From: a virus
Taxonomy: Duplodnaviria; Caudoviricetes
Direction: 5' to 3' (one strand)
IMG/VR virus record: IMGVR_UViG_3300030376_003016
Span: 1-28,630 of that record
Length of the DNA stretch: 28,630 bases
Part shown: in pieces, positions 1-28,630 of the stretch
Layout: each line of letters begins with the position of its first letter
How positions within the stretch are numbered: the first letter of the stretch is position 1
Program-made: the position numbers and the translations under genes
The notes under the pieces: model-generated
Seen by the model: only the letters and a program-made list of their open reading frames with translations
What the model was told of the DNA's origin: nothing
Database searches by the model: none

Positions 1-126
1 AGATGTTATGAGATAGATGAAACATCAGCACCAGCAAACACTAACGACTATATAAATGTATATGTAGATTGTGATGCCTGTTTAACAGCTAATCCAACTC
101 CTACACCAGTGCCTCCAACTCCAACA
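1..126 (+). repeat. Terminal direct repeat, copy 1 (copy 2 at 28505..28630)
   Basis: Matches 28505-28630 except at positions 78 (C/T), 111 (G/A) and 114 (T/A), all synonymous third positions. Confidence 0.95.
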
Positions 127-870
127 CCAACAGTACCTCCTGGTTGTAATGAATGGGAGTTAGAAGGTGGCTCTGGAGGAGGTACATTTAGTTATACTGA
201 TTGTAGTAGTGCATCGCAAACGGAGAGTGTACCAGATGGTGATTCAGTACCAGTTTGTGCTATAGGTAGACCTACTTTAACAGGTGGTAATGGTACTGTT
301 ACTTTTAATGGACCTTGTGCTACACCAACACCGACACCAGTACCACCAACACCAACTCCTACTCCAACCCCTACTCCAACTCCTACTCCAACTCCGAGTG
401 TGATATATAAGAGGTATTTAGATTGTACTGATCCAACTAACTTATTAGATGTAAGTGGTCCATTTGGTGCAACATTCCCTAACGTACTTAAAGATGGAGC
501 AGTATGTTATGAATATAATAGTGATGCAGGTTCAGGTACAGATGGTGTATATACACTTTATACAGGATTTGCTACTTGTGTAGCTTGTGCTGGTCCAACT
601 CCAACACCTACTCCAACTCCAACTCCTACACCAGTACCATGTAATGCTATTGATTTACGTTTAGAAGGAACATTAGTAGATCCTGTAACTTGTGCAACTA
701 ATGGTACTTTCTATATAAACACAGCTAATTTCTCAACAGCAACAGACTTACACAGAGTAAGCGATTGTACAAGAAAAGCATTAGAAGGTTTCTACTATGA
801 AAATAACTTCTACAGATACTGGCATCCATCAACAGGATTCGGAGCAAGTGGAACTGTAACATGTTTATAA
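1..870 (+). CDS. C-terminal part of large tail-tip protein (continuation of 25952..28630 across the circular junction); Cys-rich modules joined by Pro-Thr linkers
   Basis: Frame +1 is open from base 1 ([37 protein letters not shown]...) to TAA at 868-870. The same peptide is encoded at 28505-28630 in the frame of the 25952 ORF, so GTG at 109 is internal. Confidence 0.85.
   Translation, partial: RCYEIDETSAPANTNDYINVYVDCDACLTANPTPTPVPPTPTPTVPPGCNEWELEGGSGGGTFSYTDCSSASQTESVPDGDSVPVCAIGRPTLTGGNGTVTFNGPCATPTPTPVPPTPTPTPTPTPTPTPTPSVIYKRYLDCTDPTNLLDVSGPFGATFPNVLKDGAVCYEYNSDAGSGTDGVYTLYTGFATCVACAGPTPTPTPTPTPTPVPCNAIDLRLEGTLVDPVTCATNGTFYINTANFSTATDLHRVSDCTRKALEGFYYENNFYRYWHPSTGFGASGTVTCL
322..396 (+). 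repeat. Pro-Thr low-complexity coding repeat (shorter ones at 94-141 and 595-639)
   Basis: CCN ACN codon repeats encoding [25 protein letters not shown]. Confidence 0.95.
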
Positions 871-885
871 CATATAATTTAAAAA

Positions 886-895
886 CTATTTAATA
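886..895 (+). promoter_or_regulatory. CTATTTAATA motif, putative late promoter
   Basis: Starts 13 nt before ATG 899; the same motif and spacing occur at 2515, 11665 and 22797. Confidence 0.6.
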
Positions 896-24505: not shown

Positions 24506-24849
24506 TGAGTCTACAAAAAGGAATACAGAGATTTGCTAAGAAGTGGGTACAAAACATGCGTGAAATTGTACCTGTTAGGACTGGGCAGTTAAAAAGTTCT
24601 ATAAAGTCTATAGATCGTCCTGATCCAATCATACAAATGAAAGGCTATGGACAATTTGTAAATAGTGGACACCGTGCAATTGGTAAAAAAGGTACAAAAG
24701 TACCTCCTAATCCAGAACCAGATGGATTCATAGACCCATCTTTTGATACAACAGTAAGGGAAATGGGAGAAGAATTACCAGATGAAGTTTTTGCACAAGT
24801 TACAGATGAAATGAATAAAGTATTTAAAAAATATAGAATTATAGGATAA
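24505..24849 (+). CDS. HK97 gp10-like neck/tail completion protein
   Basis: VPVRTGQLKSSI..YGQFVNSG..P..FIDPS. Confidence 0.7.
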   Translation: MSLQKGIQRFAKKWVQNMREIVPVRTGQLKSSIKSIDRPDPIIQMKGYGQFVNSGHRAIGKKGTKVPPNPEPDGFIDPSFDTTVREMGEELPDEVFAQVTDEMNKVFKKYRIIG

Positions 24850-25952
24850 TGGCTTACACAATAAAATCACAACCAACATCACCTAATGCTACTTACACTA
24901 GTTTAATTTACAACGTTAGTAGTAGTAATGCTCTTAACCCTCAATACAATTACATAATGGATGTTTATCCATCAGGTAGTGCTGATAGATTAGCTCGTAT
25001 TAGACAATTTCCTAATCCAGTAAACGAAGCAGTTTTTGATCCATCTAGAATCTTTAACGATAACCTCCAGTATTTAAAAGACTTTAGCGATCCAGGTTAC
25101 AGTCTTAATAATACTCAACACGTAAGAACGTTTAGTGTAGAGTTTGGAGAGGAGTATGGTACTTCATCTTCGTCTAGTTTAGCTGTTACTGCTTCTATTG
25201 CACAAGACTTTATAGAAGTATTTCCAGGACAAATAGACCCTAATAATGGTACTAGTTTTAACTGGCCTGATAGTGGTTCTTCTATATTTTTAACTGATAG
25301 ACCATCTGGTGTTAAAGAGTATGTAGGTGCTCGATATAGAATGCCTTTTTACAATGGATCTGGTTCATTTGTGCTTGCAACTGCTCAAGTAGATGGAGGG
25401 AGTCCAACTACACTTGGTATATCAGCTAATCAATTTTTCTCTTCAGGTGCATGGATAAACCCTATTGATGGTCAAACTTTAACTTATACCTACAACGGTG
25501 TAACAAACAGTAGAACGTTTGAAGATGCTTGTAATTACCCTGTATATAACTTTATGTTTATTAACAAATACGGGATGTATGAAAACTTCTCAACTGCTTT
25601 ACCTGTAAGAGGTAACACAAGTGTTGATAAACAAAACTATAATCAGTCTTTTGTAGATTATTCTAACCAAGGTGCTTATGATGTCAAAAGAAGAGGAGAA
25701 ACAAACTATAATAATAACTTAACTGATAATTTAACTATATCTACTGATTGGTTAAGTAAAGATGAAGCAGTGTGGTTAACACAAATGATAGAATCTGATT
25801 CTGTGTTTGTAGCTGTATCACCAGACAACACAGTTTTTAAACCTATTGTCATAACTAATGCTTCTTATGTACAGAATACAGGTAGAAAAGATCAAAAAAC
25901 GTTTATGTATGATATAACGTTTAGATATGCAAACCAAAGAAACGGTAGATAA
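24849..25952 (+). CDS. Minor tail (distal tail/baseplate) protein
   Basis: [43 protein letters not shown]-terminal pattern. Confidence 0.6.
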
Positions 25953-28630
25953 TGGATGTTGTACTTAGAGTAGTCTATGATGGTAGTACTTATGATTTAG
26001 ACATAAATCAAGACATACCTCTACGAGTTGATATTTCAAAAGTAGATAACTCTAAGATAGGAGCAGTATATGGTGTAGGTTCTCAAACCTTTGACTTACC
26101 AGGTAGTAAAGAAAACAATAAATTTTTTAAACATGCATACAACGTAGGAGCAGATGATGTTCCTGCTTTTTATAATACTATAGATGCATATGTAATTTAT
26201 TTAGGAGAGACACTCTTAGAAGGAGAGTTACAGTTAAATGAAATTATAACCGATGAGAGTGGTTACATAACCTATAAAGTACAAATATACGATACTTCAG
26301 TACAGTTTAACACAGAGATAGAAGGTAAACTTATTAAGAATGCAAATTGGTCTAACTATAACCATACGTTAAATAAAAACGCAATGCCTAATAGTTGGAA
26401 TAACACACTATTGGCAGCACCTTATAGTTCTTCTATTTTTTACCCTATAGTTGATTATGGGTTTAATGACCCAGAGCAAGCTAATACAGCTTTTCCAAGA
26501 GTTCAGATGGAAAACATATCTGCTTCTGCTACCCCTTTAAATTTAGCTCAAATGTTACCTGCAATAAGTCTAAAAGATACTTTAGATGTAATATTTGATC
26601 AAGTTGGATTTACTTATACTGGTAGTTTTCAACATACAGAAGATTTTAGTAAAATATATATACTACCTAAACCTAAAGATGACTTAGGAGTAGGTTCGGG
26701 TACACAAAACACATTTGATGCTCAGTTAAACATTAGTCAAATATTAAACGTTATATCTGGTTCTAACTTTATAGTTCCTATACAGAATAATTTAGAGATA
26801 TCTGATCCTGGTGGTAACTATAATACAGGAACATACAGATATACAGCACCTGCCAATGGTGATTATAGTTTTTCAGCTACATTAAGAACAAACAATCCAT
26901 GTGTTGGAGCTTCTGATCCTAACTTTGCTCTAAGGATGTATATTATTATTTACGATGTAACTAATGCAACCAATGTTGGAAGTGAGTATATAGAGTATGA
27001 TGCCACTGATGGATCACTTCAAGATATTGCTGCTTCTGCTACCCTAACAGGTGTAACAGCAGGTACAGTTTACGAAACAAGAGTTGAATGGGATATAATA
27101 TCAGGTACTGGTAATTCAACTACACCGGTTATACTTGGTGGAGGAACAACTGCTTTTGGTTCTGATAGTGCCCCTGTTACTTTTGATGGTGTAACAGTAG
27201 ATATATCTGAACAATGGGAACCGTTAACTAAAACTTTAGATGTTTTAAAAGGTATAATGGATTTATTTAACTTAGTTATTGTACCTGTAGAAGGTAGTAA
27301 AACTCTGCTTGAAATACATACATTCGACGATTGGTTTAACTCAGGTACACAGGTTGACTGGGATGATAAGTGGGATACTTCTATAAGAAGATCAATAACT
27401 CATCCGGTACTAGAGCAACCTAAAAAATTACTATTTGACTACGAAGAAGATGAAGATAGAATTAGTAAATTAGCTTTAGATAGTGACCCTAACTACCAAT
27501 ACGGTACACTTGAGGTTATAGCTGATAATACTATTAGTCAAGGAGAAGAAGAGGTAGGTAGTTATTTTGGTCCTACTGTCTTAGCTTCTCAAACTACAGG
27601 TTCTAATTTAAGTTTAGATACAGGTAATACTTTTATTTTCCCACACCTATATAAATTTGAAAACTCAGAGCAACAAGCATATAAGTTTAAGCCAAGAATA
27701 GGGTTTAAGTCACAAAATAGTCTTACTGAAAATATATTTGTAGGGGAACCAGGAGATACAAGACAGATATCACAAAGTTATTTTACTTTATCTAACTTAG
27801 AAGAATTACCGAGCACTCCTACAGGTTCTAACTTACATTTTAATACGACTTATACTTCTTACATACCTTCTACCTACAATCAGTCAGGTAGTTTTTCTAA
27901 TTTTAATAAGTACTGGAAAACTTATATAGATAGTTTATATTGGGATGAAGGAAGAAAAGTAACACTAGATGTAAAGTTTGAACAAAACGAGTATAGAAGT
28001 ATAGAGTTAAACGATGTTATCTTTATAAAAGGCACACAGTATAGAATAAATAAAATTAAAGGGTTTAATTTAACAGATGATGATATAGCAACAGTAGAGC
28101 TGTTAAAACTTTACCCTGCATATGTTAATGTGCAAACACCGGCAGTTGTTCCGCCTACACCTACACCAACATTAGGGCCAACACCAACCCCAACGGCAAC
28201 ACCAACTCCAACACCAACGGCTACACCGACACCGACACCGACCCCTACTCCAAGTCCTACTCCTACGCCGACACCTACGCCTAGTCCGACACCTACACCA
28301 GTACCTCCGACTCCAACACCAACACCTGGTCCAACTCCTACACCAACTCCAACACCAGGACCAACACCTACACCAACACCAGTACCGTATAATTACTTTA
28401 CTGTTACTATTTGTCCAGGAGGAGGTAGTGCATCATATAGTAGTGTTAGAGCAACATTTGCAAGTGGAGTAACATCAGGAGATATAGTAGAAATGAATGA
28501 TGGTAGATGTTATGAGATAGATGAAACATCAGCACCAGCAAACACTAACGACTATATAAATGTATATGTAGATTGTGATGCTTGTTTAACAGCTAATCCA
28601 ACTCCTACACCAGTACCACCAACTCCAACA
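25952..28630 (+). CDS. Large tail-tip/hub protein, open at window end (missing from ORF track); ~1,140 aa if joined to 1..870
   Basis: ATG 25952 overlaps the upstream [82 protein letters not shown], then Pro-Thr repeats; no stop found in the stretches I translated. Confidence 0.85.
28136..28387 (+). repeat. Long Pro-Thr (mucin-like) coding repeat, ~84 codons
   Basis: [79 protein letters not shown]. Confidence 0.95.
28505..28630 (+). repeat. Terminal direct repeat, copy 2
   Basis: 123/126 identical to 1..126. Confidence 0.95.

Follow-up and report, generated by a model that had tools for sequence, protein, structure and literature searches.

A complete tailed-phage genome without recognisable replication and lysis genes: a candidate full-tailed satellite of Immutovirus-like phages

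How does a tailed phage multiply when its genome encodes an entire particle but no recognisable means of copying its DNA or of lysing its host? This question is raised by the Caudoviricetes record IMGVR_UViG_3300030376_003016, whose 28,630 nt were analysed as a whole (hereafter, the window). The initial annotation had proposed that the virus might be an inverse of known phage satellites, making its own particle and borrowing replication and lysis from a large co-infecting phage. This idea fits our results as a likely reading; a precedent is already published in the satellites MiniFlayer and MulchRoom (available part of PMC10690885). We suggest, with a probability of about 60%, that the window is a full-tailed satellite virus that needs co-infection with a large Bacteroidota phage of the Immutovirus type. 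The proposed dependence is supported indirectly by the loss of two gene modules, by promoter-like sites of Immutovirus type and by genes in common with large phages; it draws no support from the late motif CTATTTA, and the retention of the virus's own sigma factor speaks against it.

The genome was described as complete with overlapping ends, and this is confirmed. The window is the whole IMG/VR record (CheckV completeness 99%; classed as linear) and its coding density is 94.6%. Within the tail hub gene, its first and last 126 nt match in the same reading frame, the two copies differing at positions 78, 111 and 114, in each case synonymously. Three relatives (L002, L022 and L106) bridge the end of the window to its start, each carrying the hub as a single open reading frame (ORF) of 1201-1234 aa, so that the suggested inspection of the 28630->1 junction revealed no extra replication or lysis sequence. 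A 1500-nt contig from marine run X1 lies on positions 1-510 and extends beyond position 1; at 78 it carries the letter of the end copy. Its placement was seen for 510 of its letters. Because relatives bridge the ends and this contig passes position 1, nothing is hidden at the junction, and the window is a complete siphovirus-type genome. Its largest non-coding gap (20295-20602, 308 nt) falls between the terminase genes, where close relatives have a conserved 67-codon ORF with a TTG start; this gap may contain a packaging site or an origin.

No polymerase, primase, helicase, SSB, recombinase, integrase or peptidoglycan hydrolase was found among the 40 window ORFs scanned against Pfam, PHROGs and NCBIfam, nor any partition, immunity or clear repressor gene. 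Tblastn with replication and lysis proteins of an autonomous outgroup (see below) gave no match in the window either, and the earlier observation that such genes are missing therefore stands and extends to the whole clade. The comparison with the Nonlabens phage P12024S (Inhavirus) indicates where they would be expected. This phage has homologous portal, protease, tube, adaptor and hub proteins, a sigma-like gene, and a related architecture and gene order, with seven family protein clusters matching it at 25-36% identity. Between its fibre and sigma genes lie endolysin, holin, ERF, YqaJ, SSB, primase and helicase; the corresponding place in the window is an interval of 300 nt (16008-16307). 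Across 44 family loci spanning adaptor to sigma, in 25 distinct arrangements, we observed only fibres, lectin-like tips, nucleases and an occasional short DUF6291 gene. Using outgroup proteins as queries, DnaB, ERF, YqaJ and lysin were found in none of 20 family genomes (0/21 when G062 is included), and the same replication and lysis queries had no match in 262 family loci totalling 2.2 Mb; nor did a lysin turn up among the scanned family ORFs. Primase gave no match in any of the 21 genomes. Ten of these are at least 90% complete; one of the 21, G034 (24,274 nt), is complete with direct terminal repeats (DTRs) and carries none of these modules.

The control group was found by a scan with more distant capsid proteins and comprises uncultured genomes of 29-32 kb with related architecture, several of them DTR-complete. 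Their Pfam content includes DnaB, ERF, YqaJ and DUF6291, together with amidase, GH108 or M15 lysins. In ten outgroup records (G046-G055, with G055 covered for 35 of its 62 kb), DnaB is present in 8, ERF in 10, YqaJ in 7 and lysin in 9. Features that set P12024S and this outgroup apart from the window are an initiator, ERF, YqaJ, an endolysin, and a helicase or primase; their early promoters are of host type. Two outgroup DTR records, G055 and G056, measure 62-63 kb, roughly double the length of their relatives, and could be concatemers. In quick trees of the major capsid protein, portal and large terminase (TerL), whose root was assumed, the module-less genomes fall together on one side of a branch whose local support is 99-100%. 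The simplest reading of these trees would be that the modules for replication and for lysis were lost once, long ago.

We observed a second difference between family and outgroup in their early promoter-like sites. The best cultured Bacteroidota match of the window's kinase is Flavobacterium phage immuto (160 kb). This T4-like myovirus is autonomous, with complete pathways for replication, lysis and 7-deazaguanine, and its virion modules are unrelated to those of the window. The early region of immuto repeats the site AAAAGTTG[C/G]-N14-TTC.TAT[A/C]TTTAG, and its genome annotation includes no sigma factor. Over its early genes (L491:10988-27000; immuto 61-77 kb) these sites form a tight promoter-like consensus that ends in TTTAG and not in TTTG. 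The housekeeping promoter consensus of Bacteroidota is TTG..TAnnTTTG. A profile trained on 21 immuto sites and scored on intergenic DNA matched 10 of the 21 family genomes, none of 11 autonomous controls and none of the reversed-sequence controls. Conversely, the host-type pattern occurs in 11/11 controls and in 5/21 family genomes; the window has two such matches in the profile-scan tally and none upstream of ORFs in a separate count. In a simpler tally, host-like endings account for 17 of 29 outgroup sites and 5 of 8 P12024S sites, compared with 1 of 45 family sites and 0 of 35 immuto sites. A loose promoter pattern applied to five records did no better than its control, and the first promoter tally was noisy.

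Three sites of Immutovirus type are present in the window. The best scoring (25.0) is on the minus strand at 22754-22718, in a segment that also holds a 67-aa ORF (22477-22754, minus strand). Another (5010-5046, plus strand; score 16.1) precedes the glycosyltransferase operon. The third, before the sigma gene (16261-16297, plus strand), has 17 specified bases in common with an immuto early site and scores below the profile cut-off. This 17-base pattern matches 61 stretches in IMG/VR, of which 33 run on into a -7 box. Sorted and counted by eye by best match, these 33 comprise 20 Immuto- or G060-like stretches (one tie), 9 from the family, 4 from G017-like large phages and none from the outgroup. 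The remaining 28 stretches were discarded as matches other than promoters. We therefore suggest, judging from these patterns, that Immutovirus-type promoter-like sites have largely replaced host-type early promoters in the family.

The third line of evidence is gene sharing. Besides the early promoter consensus and a TATTTA late motif, immuto resembles the family in a homologous kinase, a DpdN-like formyltransferase, a holin, fibre segments and SegE. Family members have glycosylation genes, too, in common with Immutovirus-like phages. Family proteins match eight immuto proteins (the kinase, DpdN-like, holin, fibre and SegE proteins, two LamG proteins and, remotely, TerL), with identities of up to 64.5% over 155 aa for fibre segments (L343 against immuto gp052), 54% for the holin and 45% for the DpdN-like protein. 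Outgroup proteins match one, DnaB. In three Immuto-like IMG/VR records, 17 proteins are matched by the family and 4 by the outgroup, and DNA matches to these records, G060 and immuto number 64 for the family and none for the outgroup. One family holin has immuto as its sole match among 50,697 phage records. An endolysin adjoins this gene in immuto, whereas none lies beside it in the family, in which holin-like genes occur without a lysin. PolA, SSB, a RecA-like protein, DnaB, DnaG and endolysins are all encoded by immuto. The homologues of the kinase and formyltransferase sit in its 7-deazaguanine cluster, the kinase between the DpdN and QueF genes. The available part of PMC10516641 describes complete modification of immuto DNA and predicts a formyltransferase function for DpdN, noting similar proteins also in phages without a 7-deazaguanine pathway. 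In family members, DpdN-like and DUF6884 genes were observed (L003:377-901; L220:1675-2484; L460:3328-4146), and no DpdA or Que pathway genes turned up among the scanned family ORFs. G062, a family member of 32 kb, encodes ribosomal protein bS21 (L488:1854-2069; PF01165, E 5e-11), which the available part of PMC9723584 describes in large Bacteroidetes phages.

Two other kinds of large phage were considered as helpers and rejected. A cassette of glycosyltransferase, carbamoyltransferase and HtrL-like genes in the family (L032:5195-7600; L203) is syntenic with one in the Xanthomonas jumbo phage XacN1 (L291:20001-26958). The cassettes are 41-43% alike, yet XacN1-like phages have TAAATA motifs and infect another host phylum. 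The 290-kb phages of the G017 type have one or two proteins in common with the family, no match to the immuto profile and 23 host-type promoters.

Several observations weigh against dependence on a helper, beginning with late transcription. CTATTTA occurs in the window at 886-892 (plus strand) and also at 2515, 7564, 11665, 19880 and 22797. TATTTA lies upstream of 10 of 31 window ORFs (2.3 expected). In the window, in the family and in large phages alike, including immuto (35/148 versus 10.6 expected), it stands about 11-13 nt ahead of structural genes. Sharing of the motif with large phages had been offered as a test for a helper, and that test gives no support, since CTATTTA is also present in the autonomous outgroup (47 of 539 upstream regions versus 3.8 expected). 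We therefore regard it as ancestral and reject it as a helper-derived signal. It is probably read by the phage's own sigma factor, and with this factor kept and the motif inherited, late transcription looks autonomous. The late motif of P12024S is a different one, TTCGTTAATA. A shift to ATATTTAT in the freshwater subclade (37/463 versus 3.4 expected), matched in G017 (51/247 versus 4.0) and less so in the outgroup (11 versus 3.3), is only suggestive as a helper signal. In large phages of Bacteroidota type (G017 and immuto), virion genes are preceded by TATTTAT, which on the opposite strand reads as the T4-like TAAATA core of XacN1; the available part of a jumbo-phage review (PMC7824862) has nothing bearing on the motif.

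Other points count against dependence as well. Two of the 21 family genomes, and 7 of the 262 loci, keep an initiator-like DUF6291 gene, and four loci have an initiator-like gene with a winged helix-turn-helix. The promoter profile finds no match in 11 of the 21 genomes, and the Fisher p of 0.006 overstates independence because the family is one clade. The 17-base pattern was picked after the likeness had been noticed, four of its nine family matches are near-copies of the window, and the variant could be a strong promoter read by the host and reached by convergence. As to gene sharing, some of the 64 DNA matches are Pro-Thr repeats, the family protein set is about twice that of the outgroup (1845 versus 974; 2062 versus 1193), and no near-identical DNA ties the window to one helper, its best match being 74% over 121 nt. 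Finally, the satellite reading gives no account of how a tailed virus that does not integrate would encounter its helper.

If the window is nonetheless such a satellite, its cycle might run as follows. It would inject its DNA through its own tail into a cell co-infected by an Immutovirus-like phage, where its few early genes would fire under the transcription state set by the helper. The helper's polymerase, SSB, recombinase, DnaB and primase would copy the satellite DNA, and replication would probably be primed by recombination or R-loops, as it is in T4, with no initiator needed; this would account for the absence of one. Endonucleases of the family, such as the GIY-YIG enzyme GIY1, would perhaps supply ends or damage the helper. 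The virus's own sigma factor would drive the TATTTA late genes, and exit would follow when the endolysin of the helper lyses the cell. A broader proposal is that the clade as a whole consists of obligate 'virophages' of Immutovirus-like phages, derived from ordinary siphoviruses and marked by one old loss, rewiring to the helper's early promoters, initiator-free copying by the helper, and glycosylation and DNA-modification genes derived from helpers; we consider the chances of this evenly balanced.

The strongest rival, although we judge it rather unlikely, is that the virus is an autonomous minimal lytic phage. The host replisome would be recruited by a small unrecognised DNA-binding protein or by transcription from the phage's own promoters, lysis would be due to a small membrane protein or to host autolysins, and the large-phage genes would be ordinary horizontal gains. 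One argument for it comes from cluster AN Arthrobacter phages. In these small siphoviruses, as in the window, neither replication genes nor an integrase or partition system are identified, and they grow and were isolated as ordinary phages (PMC5679792); because of this case, missing replication genes alone prove nothing. These phages differ from the window in their size (15 kb), their Actinobacteria hosts and their peptidase and amidase lysins (PMC5679792). This two-enzyme lysis cassette stands in contrast to the lack of a lysin match in all 21 family genomes. The sigma factor and ancestral late motif also favour autonomy, as do the sporadic initiator-like genes and the four small transmembrane (TM) proteins of the window, which could hide a lysis function. 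The best initiator candidate is a 156-aa ORF in a group of four small ORFs (16844-17930, plus strand), next to two membrane proteins and a CxC protein. Its predicted structure (predicted local distance difference test, pLDDT, 74) has a weak fold likeness to HNH-nuclease and NUMOD4 proteins (best E 0.007). It may bind DNA and is a candidate initiator or regulator; an Atlas search gave no match and PDB searches nothing informative. However, this gene and its neighbours are absent from G006, G007 and G009, no initiator candidate is common to all members, and host-type early promoters appear to be largely replaced.

In a less probable alternative, dependence is partial: the virus would replicate or persist with host machinery as a non-integrated episome, and would rely on a large co-infecting phage only for its exit endolysin and perhaps for a boost to replication. 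In line with this, holin-like genes occur without a lysin and initiator-like genes survive in some members, and waiting as an episome would solve the problem of co-infection. We consider it improbable given the lack of any partition, immunity or clear repressor gene and of any copy in GTDB genomes. It is more doubtful still that the genome is bipartite, the window being one segment and a separately packaged partner carrying replication and lysis; it is exactly these two modules that were cleanly lost, yet no partner segment was seen, the links through promoters and genes lead to existing large phages, and we know of no multipartite tailed phage. That the missing genes sit on a piece lost in assembly is hardly credible, despite the linear class of the record and an end overlap with three mismatches in a repeat-rich gene, given that three relatives cross the junction in one ORF, that the DTR-complete G034 has none of these genes either and that the longest family contigs seen measure 28-32 kb.

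The virion genes of the window account for a particle of its own. The 40-ORF scan returned terminase, portal, protease, tape measure and neck proteins, glycosyltransferases, an AAA_28 kinase, a weak GNAT, three GIY-YIG/NUMOD nucleases and a sigma factor resembling the extracytoplasmic function (ECF) type. All virion genes are on the plus strand. The hub gene, homologous to the P12024S protein in the same place, is split by the ends of the record: its N-terminal part, with Pro-Thr repeats, occupies 25952-28630 (ORF open at the 3' end) and its C-terminal part 1-870, positions 1-126 overlapping 28505-28630. It is followed by the tape measure protein (899-2512; phrog_24676, E 2e-4) and an XkdF-like prohead protease (2527-3855; PF14550, E 2e-16). 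The putative scaffold (7612-8343) was assigned by position, acidic composition and conservation, and the major capsid protein (8346-9296) by position and conservation, with 585 homologues and a weak match to phrog_11320. Next come a probable tail tube protein (9372-9914; phrog_19091, E 3.5e-11), homologous to P12024S gp03, the portal (10424-11662; phrog_11226, E 9e-38) and a DUF6712 head-tail adaptor (11677-12264; PF20459). The segment 12264-16007 encodes a tail fibre with TASYA repeats and a lectin-like tip protein, and 19914-21850 a putative small terminase and the large terminase (PF03237, PF17289). In G008, TerL is divided into two overlapping ORFs of 163 and 271 aa (L118:10170-11422), which is a frameshift or an assembly error. 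The tail assembly chaperone (22810-23657) has a predicted programmed frameshift, with an overlapping second frame and a T-run near 23355. A block at 23659-25952, assigned from phrog_5 (E 1.5e-5) and synteny, holds a small helix-turn-helix protein (23659-23874; weak, PHROG E 0.004), a small TM protein, a putative tail terminator, an HK97 gp10-like neck protein and a putative distal tail protein; in G006, G007 and G009 the terminator is fused to an extension of about 500 aa (L114:4381-6333; L116:14755-16761). Capsid and packaging genes are thus present, and the long-tail module is complete, with tape measure, tube, chaperone frameshift, neck, distal tail and hub. A Bacteroidota host is likely: the portal's best cultured matches come from phages of Nonlabens and Bacteroides, and of 34 starts, 22 have an A at -3 and none is preceded by a Shine-Dalgarno motif. 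No cultured match was found for the fibre or the major capsid protein, and the window has no tRNA and no Rfam match.

Among the remaining genes, a 56-aa single-TM protein (3869-4039, plus strand; no family match above cut-off) is a holin candidate by hydropathy and position, with no adjoining lysin. On the minus strand follow GIY1, a zinc-finger and GIY-YIG endonuclease (4114-4608; PF01541) that keeps its position in 16 of 17 distinct tape-measure-to-scaffold arrangements of the marine subclade, and a 97-aa protein with a coiled coil and a small helical domain (4598-4891; alignment A6). For the latter, PDB searches gave coiled-coil matches alone, an Atlas search none, and its profile against 24 records only a family member. 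The glycosylation cassette (5181-7532, plus strand; PF11397, PF00777) comprises an N-acetylglucosamine (GlcNAc) transferase, a 188-aa ORF and a GT29 enzyme. All four cultured matches of the GlcNAc transferase are jumbo phages, and its IMG/VR matches lie on contigs of up to 292 kb. The sigma factor (16308-16862, plus strand; 184 aa) matches NF007215 (SigZ) at E 3e-5 and, weakly, sigma region 4 in the PDB; a single-sequence fold (pLDDT 49) was unusable. The gene is found in 13 of 16 family records, and a homologue in none of 14 large-phage records. The statement that all unassigned ORFs are shorter than 160 aa was incorrect, given this protein and the 188-aa ORF (6443-7009), which has no family match. 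Further genes on the plus strand encode the AAA_28 kinase, 49% identical to that of G060, with a GNAT-like acetyltransferase (18084-18970; PF13521), and a GIY-YIG/NUMOD endonuclease-like protein (19260-19781; PF22083 and PHROG nuclease matches). In G002, a close relative, a 291-aa AAA+ ATPase (L107:10844-11719) replaces the window's 102-aa ORF and second nuclease. The third nuclease, GIY3 (21843-22382, minus strand; phrog_314, E 1e-27), is a Seg-like GIY-YIG enzyme and a strain-specific insertion absent from G001. Its cultured matches include Enterococcus phages of 55-59 kb, so it is not specific to large phages.

The capsid protein has 585 homologues, 82 IMG/VR relatives and 146 metagenome relatives, and a sister subclade was reached by profile. 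The family is a deep, widespread aquatic phage clade with hundreds of members, marine and freshwater. The window's DNA occurs in marine metagenomes, with at least half of its sequence words in 13 of 24 listed runs, and RNA runs contain at most small shares of its DNA and short repeat matches. Neither subclade, used as query, had a relative in GTDB, represented by one genome each of 185,579 species. We found no published description of the family in a search of mainly open-access literature.

The closest known systems are MiniFlayer and MulchRoom, satellite viruses of BE-cluster phages of Streptomyces (deCarvalho et al. 2023). According to the available part of PMC10690885, they resemble the window in having their own capsid, portal and terminases, no primase and HNH or GIY-YIG nucleases; their helper is a large virulent phage, as we propose here, and MiniFlayer also has no integrase. 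They differ in encoding 20-26 proteins and in DTRs of about 1 kb; the long tail of MulchRoom appears to be made by its helper, while short fibres of MiniFlayer bind the helper's neck (same source). The present clade differs from both in its full long tail (tube, chaperone frameshift, tape measure, distal tail, hub and fibre), its sigma factor, its large-phage accessory genes, its link to Bacteroidota and its hundreds of members, and in that its dependence is proposed from sequence. Capsid-forming phage-inducible chromosomal islands (cf-PICIs), PICIs, P4 and PLE share the parasitism of a helper phage, and cf-PICIs also encode capsid and packaging genes. These elements integrate, encode their own replicase and borrow tails or whole virions (available part of PMC10690885), whereas the window has no integrase, no replicase, no copy in GTDB and a full tail. 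The Ando satellite, as far as the available part of PMC13587820 describes it, encodes an integrase and has no tail or lysis genes. Among eukaryotic systems, virophages likewise make their own particle and depend on a much larger virus, sharing promoter signals with it. They differ from the clade in capsid lineage and eukaryotic hosts, and mainly borrow transcription, whereas here replication and lysis are missing. In its available part, a 2026 review (PMC13359090) names only the MindFlayer satellite as a hyperparasite of a large phage that encodes a capsid, and regards the question as open. The clade is best read as a full-tailed variant of a satellite virus, in a family that we did not find in print.

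If the clade is helper-dependent, satellite viruses would not be a Streptomyces rarity but would include a family of hundreds in sea and lake viromes, completeness tools would be scoring such satellites as ordinary phages, and an evolutionary route would lead from a normal siphovirus to a parasite of phages. With a cultured class of candidate helpers named, the idea is testable. If the clade instead proves autonomous, its members would start replication in an unrecognised way and lyse their hosts without an endolysin, which would also be new.

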